The notes beneath the pieces are model-generated. The model had not been told where the DNA came from. It saw only the letters and a list, made by a program, of their open reading frames with translations, and did no database searches. A stretch of DNA of 64,000 nt from Acidimicrobiales bacterium (lineage in GTDB: Bacteria > Actinomycetota > Acidimicrobiia > Acidimicrobiales > BPGG01), in NCBI GenBank assembly GCA_026002915.1, contig BPGG01000001.1, positions 1,312,366 to 1,376,365 on the forward strand, given 5' to 3'. Both the position numbers and the translations under genes were made by a program. Positions 3,362 through 63,057 of the stretch are shown here, one piece after another (position 1 is the stretch's first letter; each line of letters begins with the position of its first letter).

Positions 3362-3805
3362 TCACCGACCGGTGTGCCCGAACCCTCCCTCTCCTCTGGG
3401 TGTGTCGTCGAGCGACTCCACTTCCACTAGCTCCGCATCTGCGACCGGTATGACGACGAGCTGTGCGATGCGGTCCCCTCTACGGATGACGTGGGGCTTC
3501 TCCCGGTCCGTGTTGATCAACAGCACCTTCACCTCTCCTCTGTAGCCGGGATCGATGAGACCCGGCGTGTTCAGGCAGGTGACGCCGTGCCGCAGGGCCA
3601 GACCGCTTCGAGGCTGTACGAAGCCCGCGAATCCCGGCGGGATCGCGAGGGCTATCCCGGTGCCGACCAGTCCACGCTCCCCCGGTCCGAGCTCGACGTC
3701 GTGTGCCGCGTGAAGGTCCAAGCCCGCGTCGTCGGGCATCGCCCTCGAAGGGAGAGGCACCTCCGGATCGAGTCGTCGGACACGGATCGTCAGACGGGAT
3801 GACAC
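3362..3805 (-). CDS. dut: dUTP diphosphatase
   Basis: Motifs [24 protein letters not shown] and [11 protein letters not shown] 3805 is preferred over the track start at 3835. Confidence 0.9.
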
Positions 3806-4380
3806 GTGCCGAGAGCCTACGTGCGAGAATCGCACCCGTGCTCGCCTGGATGGACCTGGAGATGACCGGATTGGATCCTTCGAGGGATGCGATCGTCGAG
3901 ATAGCTACGTTGATCACCGACGACGACCTCGAGGTGATAGCAGAGGGGCCCGACATCGTCGTGCACCAACCCGAAGAGGTGCTCGCGCACATGAGCGATG
4001 CAGTGCGGGAGATGCACACGCGCAACGGGTTGTTGGACGAGGTGCGCCGTTCCACGACCACGTTGAGGAGAGCAGGTGAACTCACCCTGGAGTTCCTCAA
4101 GAAGCACATACCGGAGCCGGGTACGGTCCCGCTGTGCGGCAACTCCATCGGCACCGACCGCCGCTTCCTGGCTGCCCAACTCCCCGAACTCGAAGAGTTC
4201 TTCCACTACCGAGTGGTGGACGTGTCCTCGATCAAGGAACTCGCCCGCCGATGGAACCCCGCATTACTGGAAGAGGCACCCGTCAAGAAAGAGGGCCACA
4301 GAGCCTTGGACGACATCCGCGAGAGCGTCGAAGAGTTGCGCTTCTACCGCCATCGGTTCTTCCGACTCCAGCAGCCCTGA
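3799..4380 (+). CDS. orn: oligoribonuclease
   Basis: DEDDh exonuclease motifs [23 protein letters not shown] and [14 protein letters not shown]. Start is ATG 3799 or a slightly later GTG/ATG; the track ORF from 3703 overlaps dut. Confidence 0.9.
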
Positions 4381-4411
4381 CAAGTGGCCCCATCGCCGAT
4401 GCGGGCGCTAA

Positions 4412-5260
4412 TCATGACACCGCTCGCCAGCGACCCTGCACGCTCCGCCCCGAGACGAGCCCCTCGGCCCGCAGCTTGAGCAGATGCGCCCACACGTTCA
4501 TCGCAGCCCACTCGTGCATCGATTCGGGAACGTCGCGGTAAACCTCTCTGACGATGTCCCCCACCGTCGCGGATCCCAGCCTCTGGACGGCTTCGTAGAT
4601 CGCCTTCTCACGTGCGGCGCGGTGGGTGATGTAGTGATCGATCACTTCGCGCGGGTTTTCGATGAAGTGTCCGTGTCCGGGCGCTATCGCCCGCAGGCGT
4701 AGCGACCGGACCTTCTCCAGCGAATCCATGTAGGCAGCCATGTCTCCATCTGGAGGCTGCACCACCACGGTCGAACCCTCGATTATGTGATCGCCGGAAA
4801 GAAGCGTCCTCTCCTCCTCGAGGAGAAAGCAGAGATGGTCTCTCGAATGGCCGGGAGTGTGCACGGCCGTCAGACGAAACTCCGTCGCCTGCAGCTGGTC
4901 GCCATCTTTCATCCTACGATCAGGAACGAAATCGTCTTTCTTGGAGAATCCCAATATCTCCGCCCCTGTCATTTCCTTTAGTCGTGCTGCACCAGGAGAG
5001 TGGTCTGGATGCGTGTGAGTGACGAGAATCCAACGTATTCGGTCTCCTCCACATCCCGCGATGGCGTCGAGGTGCTCCTGCACGAGGGGTCCCGGATCGA
5101 CGACGGCTATCTCGTCGATCCCGACCAAATACGTGTTGGTTCCTGCACCGGTGAGAGGGCCCGGATTCGGTGCCGTGATTCGCCGCAGCAGGGGGCTGAG
5201 CGCACGGGCGACCAAATGTTCGATCGGGAGTGGCGTGGGTGTGTCCGACGTGCCGTTCAT
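4412..5260 (-). CDS. MBL-fold metallo-hydrolase with C-terminal winged-helix-like tail
   Basis: THTHPDHSPG (HxHxDH) and downstream His/Asp ligands. ATG 5260 overlaps the Nudix stop (TGATG); the track ORF extends to 5536. Confidence 0.8.
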   Translation of the reverse strand: MNGTSDTPTPLPIEHLVARALSPLLRRITAPNPGPLTGAGTNTYLVGIDEIAVVDPGPLVQEHLDAIAGCGGDRIRWILVTHTHPDHSPGAARLKEMTGAEILGFSKKDDFVPDRRMKDGDQLQATEFRLTAVHTPGHSRDHLCFLLEEERTLLSGDHIIEGSTVVVQPPDGDMAAYMDSLEKVRSLRLRAIAPGHGHFIENPREVIDHYITHRAAREKAIYEAVQRLGSATVGDIVREVYRDVPESMHEWAAMNVWAHLLKLRAEGLVSGRSVQGRWRAVS

Positions 5261-5922
5261 CACCTCACCGCCCGCGCCGACTCGTCGGCTCCGCAGCGCA
5301 GCTGTTCGATGAGAGACGCCACCGTGGCGTGGCCGTCGATCGAGCGGAGGTTCGCCATGGTGGGCAGCATCAGATTCTCCTCGCCCCGGGACGCGCGGGC
5401 CAGGGCCTCGCCGGGTCGCAGCCAACAGACCTGCGTGACTTCGACTCCGTCGGGTTCCGGATCTGCGTGCGCCGGAACCTCGCAGGCGTAGAAGCGGGTG
5501 TCGTAGCGCCGAGGTTTCCCGGGTGGCGTGACCCATCTGCTGACGAAGACCAGGCGTTCGGGCCGAATGCGTATCCCGATCTCGCCGAGAATGTCGACAA
5601 AGCGCGAGGGTTGGGCCTTGGTCACCTGCCGCAGGTGCCGCAGCGTCTGGGGATCGGGCTGCGAATCGACCGCGACGAGTATTCCGGACTCTTCCAACGT
5701 CTCCCGGATCGCAGCCACGCGGTATCCGAGATGGTCGTCGGAGATACCGGCGGAGAGATCCAGCTCCGACTCTTCGAGCGCCCCACCCGGGAACAACAGG
5801 ACGCCGGGGACGAACTCAGACCGCTCGGTCCTCCTCAACATCATGACTTCGGGTCCGCTCGGCGAATCCCGCAGAACCATGAGGGTGGCTGCGGGCCGCG
5901 GCACGACCCCCGCTGCAGTCAC
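5260..5922 (-). CDS. NUDIX hydrolase
   Basis: Nudix box region FPGGALEE...AAIRETLEESGI. Confidence 0.8.
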   Translation of the reverse strand: MTAAGVVPRPAATLMVLRDSPSGPEVMMLRRTERSEFVPGVLLFPGGALEESELDLSAGISDDHLGYRVAAIRETLEESGILVAVDSQPDPQTLRHLRQVTKAQPSRFVDILGEIGIRIRPERLVFVSRWVTPPGKPRRYDTRFYACEVPAHADPEPDGVEVTQVCWLRPGEALARASRGEENLMLPTMANLRSIDGHATVASLIEQLRCGADESARAVR

Positions 5923-10995: not shown

Positions 10996-11056
10996 AGGGG
11001 TCCGAACCGACGACGGTCCGACCTGCCGGGAACGTGCGGTAGGATTCACCCCCGCA

Positions 11057-11133
11057 CGGGCTGTGGCGCAGTTTGGCAGCGCGCTTCGTTCGGGACGAAG
11101 AGGTCGCCGGTTCAAATCCGGCCAGCCCGACCA
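11057..11133 (+). tRNA. tRNA-Pro (anticodon CGG)
   Basis: Manual cloverleaf: acceptor CGGGCTG/CAGCCCG, D stem GCGC/GCGC, anticodon stem CTTCG/CGAAG with loop TTCGGGA, T arm GCCGG-TTCAAAT-CCGGC, encoded CCA. Confidence 0.9.
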
Positions 11134-11363
11134 AACAATCAAGCGGCGAGCACGTCGGTCATCGATCAACTTCCTAGAGAGAGTGTGGAGTATGTGGTGA
11201 GAGGTGATGAACGAGAGGTGATGTTCGTTGAGCACCATCTCCTCCGTACTAATGCTGGCGCTAGCGAACAGGACCACTGGGTCTGCGCCACCCTCAAGCT
11301 TTGAGACGCTGCACACCTCTGAGATGGGCGTTCCCCACTCCCTCTGGCTATTATTGCTTTACT

Positions 11364-11693
11364 GTGAAGCGGACCCGAACCGGAGCCGAGCGGTACCTAG
11401 CGAGCCGACTGTTGGATCCTACCTATCGGCGGGAGTATGAAGCGGCCCGCGAACAGATCAATCAAGTGGACGATCAAATACAAGCTATCATAAAAGCCCT
11501 CAAGGTGCGTCGGCAAGAGCTGCACATGACCGACGCCGAGCTTGCTAGGCGAGCTGGCCTGGGGCCCAAAGCGGTTCGTGAGCTACTCTCAAGAGATAGG
11601 CCCAATCCTAAGCTCCATACATTAGTAGCCGTCGCATGGGCGTTGGATTTGGAATTTGCTGCCACTCCACACAAATCGCGCAAGTCTAGTTGA
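11364..11693 (+). CDS. XRE-family helix-turn-helix protein (HigA-like antitoxin type)
   Basis: AERYLASRLLDPTYRREYEAAREQ leader followed by HTH_3 (MTDAELARRAGLGPKAVRELLSRDRPNPKLHTLVAVAWALDLEF). GTG 11364 chosen; the track ORF starts at 11301. Confidence 0.75.
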   Translation: MKRTRTGAERYLASRLLDPTYRREYEAAREQINQVDDQIQAIIKALKVRRQELHMTDAELARRAGLGPKAVRELLSRDRPNPKLHTLVAVAWALDLEFAATPHKSRKSS

Positions 11694-12135
11694 GTACCGT
11701 CTTACGTCTCTTAAACTCAGCATATAGGCGCCTGACCCGGTCGTAATCACTCTTACTCGCCGGAGCACGCAGCGGCTTTGATAGCCCAGCTATGCAGACG
11801 ATGCTTGGGCCGCCGAGTTCGTGCGCATTCCGTTCAAGTACACAGAAGAGTCGGTAATTCATTTCTTCTCCGCGTATTCGTAGTTCATACAGCCCGGACA
11901 TCTCGTCCCGCATCGCTTTCCACTTACCTCGAGCAACAAACGATGGTGGAGGACCCTGAGCCACTGCTTCAAGTAAAGCGTGAAAGCGGGCAGCTACCTT
12001 CGGGGGCAATGCGTCAAGAAATTCCTGGGCCGGAACGCTCTCTTGAGGGTCATCTTGAGGATGGCGCTGGAAAAAGTGTATGAGCCAAGGCTCTTTGGGT
12101 TCTTCTGGTCTCGGACTGGCCATGGAGTCACGCAT
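11686..12135 (-). CDS. Gp49/HigB-like (RelE/ParE superfamily) type II toxin
   Basis: PWLIHFF...VPAQEFLDALPPKVAARFHALLEAV...GLYELRIRGEEMNYRLFCVL...IVCIAGLSKP...DYDRVRRLYAEFKRR matches the phage Gp49-like toxin pattern. ATG 12135 lies 1 nt after the upstream stop. Confidence 0.7.
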   Translation of the reverse strand: MRDSMASPRPEEPKEPWLIHFFQRHPQDDPQESVPAQEFLDALPPKVAARFHALLEAVAQGPPPSFVARGKWKAMRDEMSGLYELRIRGEEMNYRLFCVLERNAHELGGPSIVCIAGLSKPLRAPASKSDYDRVRRLYAEFKRRKTVLN

Positions 12136-12136
12136 C

Positions 12137-12952
12137 CTATCCTTCACTCTGGTTATCAGCTTCGAGAGGCTCAGCAGACAGGCGTTCCGCCAAAGTCTCG
12201 ATCCGCTGGACGACATCGCCGATGGTATTGAATGCGCTGGCTGGGAGCGGCCCGTCAGACATGATTTCTAACTTGATCGTCACACGGCCGACTTGCCAGA
12301 CTTGGTGAAGAGTAGGACCGTGTTCTCCCCGGATCTCTTTCGACTGTGAGTGTGTATCGAATTCGACTAAATGGCTGTCAAAGTCAACACCATCTTCTGC
12401 ATCTCTGTGGGCGCCCTCCACTGCTTCAAAGGCTTTGAGAATTATGTGCTGATCAGGCCCAAGTTCTGCCAGTCCAGCTTTCACCGCACTGCGCGCGAAT
12501 GACTCAACAAATTTATCCTTAGACTTCGGTGAAATGCCCAACTCCAATACGGCAACGTTACCCAGCTGCTCCAAGGCGAGAAGTTGCCCCTTCTGACTCT
12601 CCTTATATAGGCGGGCAAACACCGAACAACTCATGAATGCGTCCCTTAATGCCAGGCACTCACCCTCAGGGTCCCTTGGGTATGCGATCGCGCGGCCAAC
12701 ATCGGTCATAGCTAGGCGCTCGCCTCGCCCGCTAACCAGGCCCCAATCACGAAGCGCCGCAAGTTTTTGGCGGAAAGCCCCGCTGTTTGCAGAGCTGTGT
12801 CCTAGGAGTTCGGCAATCGTTGCGATGGAGTGCTCTTCACCATACTTGCCGATCTCCTTGAGGACAGTCGAGGCATCCGTGAGTGGTAAGACGGGGAAAC
12901 CGACCGAACGCCTGCGCTTCACACGAGCCGATGTCTGCCCTGCCGTCTGCAT
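12137..12952 (-). CDS. hypothetical 271-aa protein with winged-helix-like N-terminus, family not recognised
   Basis: ATG 12952 is preceded by AAAGGA. N-terminus SIATIAELLGHSSANSGAFRQKLAALRDWGLVSGRGERLAMTDVGRAI looks like a wHTH. I recognise no motif in the rest. Confidence 0.6.
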   Translation of the reverse strand: MQTAGQTSARVKRRRSVGFPVLPLTDASTVLKEIGKYGEEHSIATIAELLGHSSANSGAFRQKLAALRDWGLVSGRGERLAMTDVGRAIAYPRDPEGECLALRDAFMSCSVFARLYKESQKGQLLALEQLGNVAVLELGISPKSKDKFVESFARSAVKAGLAELGPDQHIILKAFEAVEGAHRDAEDGVDFDSHLVEFDTHSQSKEIRGEHGPTLHQVWQVGRVTIKLEIMSDGPLPASAFNTIGDVVQRIETLAERLSAEPLEADNQSEG

Positions 12953-13117
12953 GTGTTGTCCTTTCGTTCGGATGCCTTCTCCTGAACCCTCTCGCAATCC
13001 TTCACCTCCGTATTCCAAAGCCCGTTACCAAGAGTCCCGCGCTCGCCCGCCGACACAGTGTATCTGGATGCTCGCTGGCCAGTGGGCTACTACTGCCTAC
13101 TATTCGCATAATAAACC

Positions 13118-13123
13118 ATTATA
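13118..13123 (-). promoter_or_regulatory. possible -10 hexamer (TATAAT on minus strand) upstream of the 271-aa ORF
   Basis: Plus-strand attata at 13118-13123 sits within the most AT-rich stretch of the intergenic region. No good -35 is present, and the implied leader would be about 155 nt. Confidence 0.2.
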
Positions 13124-13455
13124 GCCGGATCCGGGCCCAGCGTCGCAGCTCTCGGCATTTACTTCGCACAGTCTGTAACAGTCTTCTTGCGGGCTAGTTG
13201 GACACTCAGCGTGACAGTTCGCAAGTGAGGCGCGTGCGCTAGTTACGCGCTCGTGTAACGTGCTCCGCTTGCTAGGTACACAACGCCGCGTACCGTTAGT
13301 CGGTCCCGTAGACAGCGGCTGCCACATTCGCGGATGCGCTAGTGCCCTTTGTGCTCAGAATGGCGGGCTCAACAGATCCTGGACCTTGGTGGCATCTTCC
13401 TCTAGTCGACCGCCCAGATCTGCACAGAGCGCAGCGATTTATCGCAGGATTCCCC

Positions 13456-61336: not shown

Positions 61337-61409
61337 GGGGCTGTAGCTCAGTTGGAAGAGCACCGGCTTTGCAAGCCGGGGGTCGTGGGTTCGAGTCCCA
61401 TCAGCTCCA
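61337..61409 (+). tRNA. tRNA-Ala (anticodon TGC)
   Basis: Manual fold: acceptor GGGGCTG/CAGCTCC with the G3:U70 identity pair, anticodon stem CCGGC/GCCGG with loop TTTGCAA, T arm GTGGG-TTCGAGT-CCCAT. Confidence 0.9.
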
Positions 61410-61511
61410 CCGACGACTTCTGTCCGCATGCGCAGGTACACGTCTGTCACGGACGCACCTACACGTCTTTCAGGCGTCTCTATCACGGACACGCGTTTCC
61501 GGTCGTCTCTA

Positions 61512-62360
61512 TCAGTCGTCGGTGATGAGCGGCACGTACTGGTGCGCCGTCACAGTGGTGTTGCCTGTAGTGGTGATGTCTGGCAGCCTCCCGCTGGTGC
61601 CGTCGCTCCCCCACCAATCGACCGTCCAGTGGATGGTCGCGGTGAGCCGGTGTGTCCCCGAGTCCTGCCAGACGTGCTCGCAGTCGCTGCGCTGCAGCGG
61701 ATCCATGCCCTGTCGCCACACGATTCCGGGGTGGTCGCAGACGATGGTCTCGTCGGCGTCGGTCTCCCACACCACCCTCTTGGGCGTGGCCCTCACCGTT
61801 CCCGTGATGCCGCCGAGGGTGACGCTGGCCTGACTAGGCCGCCAGTCTCTGACGGCCAGCCAGACGGGGAAACCCACGATCACCCTGTCGGCGGGCGGGC
61901 TGAGCGCAAGGCGTGGAGCCGGAGGGGTGAGCCTGCGGCGTGCGATCTGGGCCGCCCACCAACCGGTCTCCAGACCCGAAAGCGGCTGACGGCTCTGATA
62001 GGTGAGGTAGCGGTCGTACACGATCTCGCCCTCTCCGAGACCACCCCGCCAGCAGACGAGGCGGACGATCTGCCCGTCCACCGGGCGGATCGGTCGGCCT
62101 ATCGGAGCGGGACCTGGATAGCTACCCGGCGCGTCTCCGTAGTAGGCGCAATCCCAACCTTTTGCTCTGCCGCCCACGCGCACCGGCCTGTTCCCGCCGG
62201 AAACACCCCACATGACCACAACCTCAGGAATGCCTTCGTTGATGCGTGCTGAAACCCCGTCAGATTCTTGTTCTCTTTCCCAAAAATTTGCGTATGCTGC
62301 AGGGCAGGCACAGGCAAACATAATCAAGAAAAAGATCACGTGTGTAACAAGGTACTGCAA
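61512..62360 (-). CDS. secreted hypothetical protein (Trp/Cys-containing beta-rich domain)
   Basis: Signal peptide MQYLVTHVIFFLIMFACACPAAYA. The body contains VGFPVWLAVRDW...VRATPKRVVWETDADETIVC...DCEHVW...HRLTATIHWTVDWWG. High GC except for the first 40-45 codons or so. Confidence 0.6.
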   Translation of the reverse strand: MQYLVTHVIFFLIMFACACPAAYANFWEREQESDGVSARINEGIPEVVVMWGVSGGNRPVRVGGRAKGWDCAYYGDAPGSYPGPAPIGRPIRPVDGQIVRLVCWRGGLGEGEIVYDRYLTYQSRQPLSGLETGWWAAQIARRRLTPPAPRLALSPPADRVIVGFPVWLAVRDWRPSQASVTLGGITGTVRATPKRVVWETDADETIVCDHPGIVWRQGMDPLQRSDCEHVWQDSGTHRLTATIHWTVDWWGSDGTSGRLPDITTTGNTTVTAHQYVPLITDD

Positions 62361-62959
62361 ACCGTTCTTCCCTCCTGTGATATAATTATCTTTGTAGACT
62401 CAACCTTCCACTCCTGACCTACTCTTCGTAGAGTGATTTCCCAAAGCTGTGTAACCACATCATCATCTACAACGCGACCGGTTTTGACTTCGTAGATGAC
62501 GCCGTCGTCGGTGGCACAATCTCGTGCTGTGACTTGCTCCTCAGCAGCGGAAAGGATTTCGACGTGGTGCTCTGGAAGCTGCCCAGATGGAAATCGACCG
62601 GCCAGACCCTTTCGCCGCAACTCCTGCACATTGCCCCAAGAATGTTCCAGCTGCGGCCCTGTGGCCACCTCAGCTAGGTCCTCATATGTAAGAGAATCTG
62701 GGTTGAAATAACCTCTACTAATTACGGCCCAGAATTTCTCTATTGCACGGACAATTTCCGCGCGAAGGGCTTCGGCGGAATGGTCTTGAGCCGTAGCTTG
62801 TTCAGAGCGAGTTGTTGTGGTGATTTCGACTCGAGGCTCGTCATCGACTGCGGGAACCGTTTTCGCTGTCTCGACGGTCGGCTCGGAGTTTGCGCACGCC
62901 GAAAGCGCGACCACACAGGCCGTGACACCGGCCAACACCCTCGCCTGTAGGAGCCCCAC
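62336..62959 (-). CDS. lipoprotein, NTF2-like/unknown function
   Basis: Lipobox VVALSAC after a hydrophobic leader. The mature part (AEIVRAIEKFWAVISRGYFNPD...WEITLRRVGQEWKVESTKII) looks like a cone-shaped alpha+beta fold. Low-GC codon usage. Confidence 0.6.
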   Translation of the reverse strand: MGLLQARVLAGVTACVVALSACANSEPTVETAKTVPAVDDEPRVEITTTTRSEQATAQDHSAEALRAEIVRAIEKFWAVISRGYFNPDSLTYEDLAEVATGPQLEHSWGNVQELRRKGLAGRFPSGQLPEHHVEILSAAEEQVTARDCATDDGVIYEVKTGRVVDDDVVTQLWEITLRRVGQEWKVESTKIIISQEGRTVCSTLLHT

Positions 62960-62965
62960 GGGCTG

Positions 62966-62971
62966 ACGTTA
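62966..62971 (-). promoter_or_regulatory. possible -10 element (TAACGT, TANNNT type) placed for a leaderless lipoprotein mRNA
   Basis: The minus strand reads TTGTCG-N18-TAACGT-cagccc-GTG, so the GTG start would coincide with the expected transcription start. Confidence 0.25.
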
Positions 62972-63057
62972 GGCACCAGCAACCTGTGACGACAAGCTCA
63001 CATATGGTGACTGTATGAGCGGTCTGAGGAAGAGGGCGCGGGAGTGTTCTCCAGCTC

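Follow-up and report, generated by a model that had tools for sequence, protein, structure and literature searches.

Can a toxin and its antitoxin be held in balance when their genes face each other on opposite strands instead of sharing one transcript? This question is raised by a locus in a 64,000-nucleotide stretch of the genome of an Acidimicrobiales bacterium (assembly GCA_026002915.1, contig BPGG01000001.1, positions 1,312,366 to 1,376,365), hereafter called the window. Here, a gene for a 109-amino-acid (aa) XRE-family helix-turn-helix (HTH) protein (plus strand, 11364-11693, start GTG 11364, stop TGA 11691-11693) converges with a gene for a 149-aa Gp49/HigB-like toxin of the RelE/ParE superfamily (minus strand, 12135-11686, start ATG 12135, stop TAG 11688-11686). 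Direct reading of the sequence bears out the initial annotation in that the two genes interlock by 8 nucleotides (nt), sharing on both strands the octamer CTAGTTGA (11686-11693), inside which both stop codons lie; the toxin stop TAG appears as CTA at 11686-11688 on the plus strand. That annotation had offered two explanations, a fortuitous inversion in a decaying island and a regulatory design. We are highly confident that the convergent layout is a conserved trait of an actinobacterial family and not an accident, and we lean, at somewhat better than even confidence, toward a type II-like module in which a RelE/Gp49 toxin and an XRE antitoxin are coupled by overlapping convergent transcription.

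Results

A scan of one genome per species yielded 80 loci with toxin relatives at 50 to 63% identity, from Acidimicrobiia, Streptosporangiaceae, Solirubrobacterales, Euzebyales, Nocardioides, and other Actinomycetota metagenome-assembled genomes (MAGs). By tblastn, 76 of them have an XRE homolog directly 3' of the toxin and on the other strand, and a profile search adds L030, L034, and L058, so that 79/80 loci are convergent; only at L078 did neither search find an XRE homolog 3' of the toxin. Seven further loci, including Streptomyces, Nocardia, and Rhodococcus plasmids, are convergent without exception (7/7), which brings the total to 86/87 related loci, and no co-directional toxin/XRE pair occurs among the 87. 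The plasmid-borne toxin relatives share 38 to 44% identity, and the NCBI annotation (PGAP) of these plasmids shows the convergent pair as a "hypothetical protein," the toxin, facing a "helix-turn-helix transcriptional regulator"; the two overlap by 4 nt or are 12 nt apart. Rhodococcus erythropolis BG43 (plasmid pRLCBG43, 182175-182678/181789-182178), Streptomyces goshikiensis B-1662 (plasmid), and Nocardia sp. NBC_01503 (plasmid) are cultivable carriers. For a subfamily at about 50% identity, independent gene calls give the same layout. Since toxin and XRE distances correlate (mirror-tree r = 0.75, a value reached by 0 of 2,000 Mantel permutations), the two proteins appear to travel and diverge as one module, in keeping with a functional pair. 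The family is large; at E ≤ 1e-10, 428 cluster representatives (50% identity) belong to it. Together with the 8-nt interlock, which is found in 18 of 77 pairs, these counts rule out a chance layout and refute the fortuitous inversion in a decaying island, as relatives are convergent almost without exception and the canonical co-directional operon was not found in the homologous loci compared.

A phage origin of the module was considered and rejected, given that no homolog was found in 2.9 million viral contigs (IMG/VR) or 50,697 phage records. Two copies can stand in one genome: L010 and L022 are separated by about 24 kb of contig CAZFOB010000013.1, and L013 and L021 share a MAG. The duplicate copies have near-identical XRE promoter regions, and the module can thus be multicopy.

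The identities initially proposed for both proteins agree with our analysis. On the basis of sequence and structural modeling, the toxin is a Gp49/HigB-like member of the RelE/ParE superfamily with putative toxic activity. It passes the Pfam Gp49 model PF05973 (28.9 bits against a gathering cutoff of 23.9; E = 1.2e-6), the match covering residues 65 to 128 of the 176-aa toxin open reading frame (ORF); no NCBIfam model matched it. Homologs (n = 110) reach E = 1e-51, the closest being 63% identical. The AlphaFold2 (AF2) model (pLDDT, 91.4; pTM, 0.84) has a RelE-like alpha/beta fold with two N-terminal helices on an antiparallel sheet, and a Foldseek search with it places RelE2 Rv2866 (3g5o; TM score, 0.74; E = 7e-4) at the top, with RelK (3oei) and Vibrio cholerae HigB2 (5ja8/8a0x) among the further matches. 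When the PDB was searched with a profile of the toxin family, YoeB and RelK were matched weakly at the sequence level. Specific to the family is an extra N-terminal strand, PWLIHFFQRH, which is invariant in the alignment. Homologs start 4 to 12 residues before an invariant Trp, which fits ATG 12135 or ATG 12123, and a GAAGGA Shine-Dalgarno-like motif lies 4 nt upstream of ATG 12135; the start chosen in the initial annotation is therefore supported, as is GTG 11364 for the XRE gene, whose homologs begin "M..RTGAERY" in agreement with that codon.

The XRE protein looks like an antitoxin and is a putative antitoxin and repressor. It matches Pfam HTH_3 (25.8 bits; cutoff, 23), has homologs down to E = 3e-29, and shows weak NCBIfam matches to the antitoxin families Y4mF/HipB and dnstrm_HI1420, the latter being the usual partner of Gp49-like toxins. 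Its AF2 model (pLDDT, 86) consists of a short helix (residues 7 to 15), a long helix (19 to 52), a three-helix HTH (57 to 93), and a disordered tail, such that a helical N-terminal extension of about 45 residues (about 7 to 52) precedes the HTH. In Foldseek searches, the HTH is nearest to HipB antitoxins, SinR, the C-proteins of restriction-modification systems (C.BclI, C.Esp1396I, and C.AhdI among them), and HigA. In V. cholerae HigA2, the N-terminal region neutralizes HigB2, and the HTH lies at the C terminus (PMC5416850). The JGI name for the XRE protein is "DNA-binding phage protein." A second XRE homolog, 44% identical to that of the window, was observed in L046 (3254-3517), about 1.7 kb from the module and without an adjacent toxin match.

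The geometry of the junction was compared in 77 pairs, including that of the window. The ORFs overlap in 55 of them (by 50 nt in 20, 8 nt in 18, and 62 nt in 5), a gap of 0 to 8 nt separates them in 20, and larger gaps, of 19 and 49 nt, occur in two, so that the 3' ends abut or overlap in 75/77 pairs. The 8-nt class, to which the window belongs, has the form TCA-NCT-RR on the toxin strand and must be old or recurrent, because it is spread over seven separate toxin clades, the deepest ones included. The 50-nt class resembles a loss of the XRE stop in the 8-nt class, with reading running on to the next TCA in a conserved toxin codon pair, and overlap length differs by clade (-68 to +8). For other convergent pairs flanking the same loci, crude heuristic gene calls give a median gap of 162 nt, with about 18% at ≤8 nt. 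XRE proteins of the 50- and 62-nt overlap classes (e.g., L004, L007, and L026; P0260-P0274) are extended by an Arg-rich tail of some 15 aa ("..SGTRRRTA"), which lies antisense to the conserved toxin C terminus and makes a short stretch coding on both strands.

A bidirectional terminator hairpin at the junction was looked for in the window and in the 77 loci, and none was found. The window contains no terminator-like site between 10900 and 13500, its junction folds score z = +1.3 and +1.5, and in the set of 77 loci, the gene interiors are more structured than the junction. Stretches of at least five T residues after the stops occur in 0/77 and 1/77 cases.

A 16-bp palindrome, GTAAC-N6-GTTAC, lies upstream of the XRE start in 65/81 sequences when one mismatch is allowed, once per locus and 715 to 812 nt after the toxin start, i.e., just before the XRE start, and only one extra match was found in 700 kb. 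In a scan of spacings from 2 to 14, the exact palindrome was found at N6 in 41 loci, the only other exact half-site match being one at N12 that overlaps the same site in L007. In most loci, the palindrome ends 9 to 16 nt before the XRE start codon. The hexamer TANNNT stands 5 to 8 nt before the start, mostly at 6 to 7 nt, in 58/71 XRE genes (0.5% at random positions), and a Shine-Dalgarno-like motif was found in only 6/71. Leaderless mRNAs are common in Actinomycetota, and most XRE genes of the family look leaderless, with a predicted operator that overlaps the promoter. Neither the toxin nor the gene preceding it has a copy of the operator upstream in the family loci.

The toxin, in turn, directly follows another gene on its own strand. 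In the window, this gene is o293 (minus strand, 12137-13018, 272 to 293 aa from the ORF list, with ATG 12955 as the likely start, giving 272 aa), whose stop TAG (12139-12137) is separated from the toxin ATG by 1 nt. With this spacing, o293 and the toxin very probably form an operon in which the toxin comes last, a point absent from the initial annotation. As XRE is a separate unit, each half of the module would have a promoter of its own, the two promoters pointing toward one another with both genes in between.

The upstream gene varies. It is an o293 homolog in 24 loci, a tyrosine integrase (Pfam Phage_integrase, E = 2e-22) in 21, a member of an unrelated 218-aa family in 9, a ribonucleotide reductase in 3, and a DUF5343 protein in 1 (L022). 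The stop-start gap between o293 and the toxin ranges from -8 to +8 nt in 24/24 loci, and the distance from the upstream stop to a candidate toxin start is -11 to +8 nt at every o293 and 218-aa locus and at the majority of integrase loci. Proteins of the o293 family (e.g., L004 3177-3917, L040 4180-4971, and L077 3797-4573, each directly upstream of the toxin) have 270 to 290 aa, a winged-helix-like N-terminal part, and a conserved C-terminal segment, "HQxWxIxxGxIVFEI...LPA..F..IG.VVA.LE.LA." No Pfam, NCBIfam, PADLOC, or PDB assignment was obtained for o293, matches to TraC and CasR being subthreshold; it may be a third component of the module. The 218-aa family, which occupies the same slot (L017, at -662 to -6 relative to the toxin start, and L001, L005, L020, L023, L029, L048, L062, and L074), has a C-terminal motif, "YPFPIR.G.LA.LELP.DLT..EA.R..AF..SLA," and is unrelated to o293 by hhalign. 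We rejected the upstream proteins as the true antitoxin because 21 loci have an integrase in this place and because o293 bears no relationship to the 218-aa family.

In about 15 loci, the order is tRNA-Leu(UAA), integrase, toxin, and, facing it, XRE; this arrangement is seen at L003, L008, L009, L012, L021, L032, L041, L045, L052, L060, L064, L070, and L078 (approximately 3650 to 5800 in each). Beyond XRE in L003, L041, and L042 come an extracytoplasmic function (ECF) sigma factor and neighbors that are apparently host genes, and the tRNA-Leu(UAA) arrangement may represent integrative elements consisting of little more than an integrase and the module. A tRNA lies just upstream of the XRE promoter in L022, L055, L057, L077, and the window. 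In L040 and L077, an islet that holds only o293, toxin, and XRE adjoins dnaB, much as in the window; on its other side, the integrase-free islet is bounded by a tRNA in L077, and no tRNA was found beside it in L040. L084 adjoins a TraC/TraG-type conjugation ATPase.

The module of the window occupies a low-GC islet of about 2.2 kb (11134-13300), delimited by composition and containing only the XRE, toxin, and o293 genes. GC content falls from about 0.65 to 0.55-0.56 over 11001-13000 and stays low until about 13300 (islet, 55%; host, 66%). The islet edge is marked by a tRNA-Pro (CGG) gene (11057-11133, plus strand, ARAGORN), which is on the same strand as the XRE gene and 230 nt upstream of it. 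No integrase was found among the islet ORFs, and blastn-short with the tRNA detected no direct repeat of the tRNA-Pro 3' end in the window. Exact matches to the toxin, XRE, and o293 sequences, in four start variants, were sought as a sign of near-identical relatives, and none was found. A 16-nt inverted repeat (11393-11408/13264-13279) was set aside, since, by our estimate, chance alone would produce about one match of this kind in 3.6 kb and one arm codes for the conserved RYLASR motif. A second low-GC patch in the window (61337-63000; GC, 0.56 at 62001-63000), just downstream of tRNA-Ala(UGC) (61337-61411), carries two minus-strand ORFs, one of 207 aa that is lipoprotein-like and one of 282 aa, and may represent a further small islet associated with a tRNA.

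The region upstream of the window XRE gene (plus strand, 11134-11363) is without the family operator, and no local palindrome or Shine-Dalgarno motif was found upstream of the gene. The only -10-like hexamers there are TATTAT (11349-11354) and TTTACT (11358-11363). Since no terminator lies between tRNA-Pro and the XRE gene, read-through from the tRNA promoter could feed XRE, and we speculate that the gene is expressed either in this way or from a weak local -10 element. The family half-sites also occur in everted form, GTTAC-N8-GTAAC, at about 13242-13259, some 225 nt upstream of o293 at the far islet edge. This everted pair is unique to the window; as its frequency is close to that expected by chance, it was set aside as an operator. 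The window XRE protein also has a 4-residue insertion in the long helix.

Discussion

Our data show a family of putative toxin-antitoxin (TA) modules whose two genes keep facing each other, with abutting ends, no visible terminator, an operator at the antitoxin only, and a toxin appended to a separate operon. With these features, the regulatory design put forward in the initial annotation is in agreement; the overlap of the transcripts and its effect are what we infer from them. In the mechanism that we propose, an XRE dimer would repress its own promoter at GTAAC-N6-GTTAC, and the N-terminal helical extension of XRE would bind and neutralize the toxin, by analogy to V. cholerae HigA2/HigB2. 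Each transcript would run on into the partner gene, where polymerases would collide, RNase III would cut the mRNA duplex, or both. Antitoxin transcription would thereby lower the expression of the toxin and of the integrase or o293, and the reverse would hold as well. In this way, convergent coupling would replace the cotranscription of ordinary type II systems, and mutual degradation could produce a threshold response.

A stronger version of this mechanism, which we regard as tentative, is a hybrid of type I and type II, wherein the antitoxin mRNA, made from a self-repressed leaderless promoter, would both encode XRE and silence the toxin and its upstream gene as antisense or colliding read-through. 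If this holds, the module would be a threshold switch in which toxin appears only when transcription of the upstream operon outruns that of the antitoxin, the trigger being, for example, induction of the integrase on a small tRNA-integrated element.

Several considerations weigh against coupling by convergent transcription. Because the 80 loci are related by descent, they do not count as independent events, and the upstream genes and start codons in them were called heuristically. Overlap could be precluded if transcripts ended within the partner gene, by Rho-dependent or hairpin-only termination, and the abutting ends could be neutral compaction once terminators became dispensable. These possibilities lead to the view, which we consider rather unlikely, of a genuine TA family in which convergence has no regulatory role: each gene would use its own promoter, Rho-dependent or cryptic termination would stop the antisense transcript, tight ends would reflect neutral compaction in mobile elements, and the balance of toxin to antitoxin would come from promoter strengths, XRE autorepression, and proteolysis only. 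It is in keeping with this that nearly a fifth of the other convergent pairs in the same loci are equally tight, by crude calls, that the operator alone accounts for the control of XRE, and that both the variation of overlap length between clades and the 50-nt class, as a simple loss of the stop of the 8-nt class, argue against a precise constraint at the RNA level. However, the layout is kept down to 38% toxin identity with a terminator or spacer never regained, and without cotranscription or a shared operator, nothing else that is visible ties the toxin to antitoxin output. A more radical departure, which seems improbable, is that the pair is no TA system at all and instead serves as a regulatory module of small integrative elements, with XRE as the element repressor, a RelE-fold protein acting as a nontoxic coregulator or antirepressor coexpressed with the integrase or o293, and the layout working as a lysogeny-type switch. 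The module does stand at island ends beside tRNA genes and directly after a tyrosine integrase in 21 loci, and its Cro/CI-like HTH, its promoter-overlapping palindrome, and its JGI name would suit such a role. On the other hand, the toxin retains a confident RelE/HigB2-like fold and exceeds the Gp49 gathering score, some copies of the module have no integrase, lie on plasmids, or adjoin conjugation or housekeeping genes, and no homolog was found in the viral and phage collections searched.

The window copy itself adds to the points against coupling. It lacks GTAAC-N6-GTTAC upstream of XRE, and only chance-level matches with two mismatches were seen in the window. Of 56 columns conserved in the toxin, it differs in 5, with G68A and G69R falling in a nearly invariant GGG motif; of 26 conserved XRE columns, it differs in 6, and several of these belong to the HTH. 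It ties for the most deviations in the toxin and ranks third for XRE. The initial annotation noted neither the missing operator nor the place of this copy among the more divergent members. Judging from these sequence features, regulation of the window copy may be degenerate, and its local decay may be under way. Whether the locus is more broadly a decaying remnant of a functional family, no longer regulated or active, is a separate question, and we think this unlikely. The divergence at conserved columns, a best homolog at only 63% identity, the low GC content relative to the host, and the lack of the family operator, an integrase, and an attachment (att) repeat all point toward decay, whereas all three ORFs (XRE, toxin, and o293) are intact with family-typical starts and stops, and the integrase-free three-gene islet recurs in L040 and L077. 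Furthermore, because L043, L076, and L080 are equally divergent and likewise without the canonical palindrome, a changed operator specificity in the window is as likely as decay.

Coupling through overlapping convergent transcripts thus remains the reading toward which we lean for the family, and its interest extends beyond this locus. Type II TA systems are defined and predicted as same-strand bicistronic operons (PMC10767807), and cotranscription is central to models of a safe ratio of toxin to antitoxin. A family of 428 cluster representatives that never uses the operon implies that the operon rule is not obligatory. Modules of the convergent type escape current predictors, and PGAP calls their toxin a "hypothetical protein." The family is also a natural test case for asking whether operon coupling can be replaced by convergent transcription or by mRNA-mRNA pairing, and toxins placed behind integrases could reveal how the maintenance of small tRNA-integrated elements is tied to expression of the integrase.

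The closest known relatives are the HigBA, or Gp49-XRE, type II systems, such as HigB2-HigA2 of V. cholerae and HigB2/HigA2 of Mycobacterium tuberculosis, with which the family shares the RelE/ParE fold, the match to the Gp49 model, and a palindromic operator, predicted in the family, over a promoter. V. cholerae HigA2 has the same domain order as the family XRE, an N-terminal extension followed by a C-terminal DNA-binding domain (PMC5416850). In known gp49/HigB modules, however, toxin and then antitoxin lie on one strand and are cotranscribed (PMC11980606), and the type II-VII predictors of TADB/TAfinder require same-strand tandem genes (PMC10767807). The convergent family differs from HigBA in that the antitoxin lies tail to tail on the opposite strand in 86/87 related loci, the operator is found at the antitoxin promoter only, the toxin is appended to a different operon, and the toxin has the extra strand PWLIHFFQRH. 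No description of a convergent or tail-to-tail type II family was found in the literature searched, the coverage of which is incomplete and does not prove novelty.

Reciprocal control by convergent transcripts has been described for prgQ/prgX of pCF10 (PMC3181467) and scbA/scbR of Streptomyces (PMC3134472), and convergent overlapping 3' untranslated regions ("cutoRNAs") and excludons are known from Gram-positive bacteria (PMC5502269, PMC7154746). As is predicted for the family described here, these are facing units without a terminator, one of which encodes a repressor, and the coupling proposed is reciprocal interference or RNase III processing. In prgQ/prgX and scbA/scbR, which are not TA pairs, the promoters are close and the overlap spans the 5' regions; here, by contrast, whole genes lie between the promoters and the overlap would start at the 3' ends. 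A different parallel is provided by restriction-modification systems in which the R and M genes converge and a C-protein exerts control. These, too, place an addiction-type poison and its antidote on opposite strands with a small XRE-type controller, but their enzymology is different, and the controller is a third protein and not the antidote itself.

Among TA systems, the geometry has its counterpart in type I. In the Gram-positive pairs txpA/RatA and bsrG/SR4, as here, convergent genes overlap at their 3' ends, and an RNA duplex at the 3' end of the toxin mRNA would be geometrically unavoidable if they were both transcribed through. In those pairs, the antitoxin is a noncoding RNA and the toxin a small membrane peptide, whereas the present family pairs two folded proteins of type II families. 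By its convergent layout in the window and in 86/87 loci, the family falls outside type II as a same-strand, cotranscribed operon, and by its opposite-strand gene, which encodes a conserved 109-aa HTH protein, it falls outside type I, in which the antitoxin is an RNA. In conclusion, the family shares its proteins with type II and its geometry with type I.

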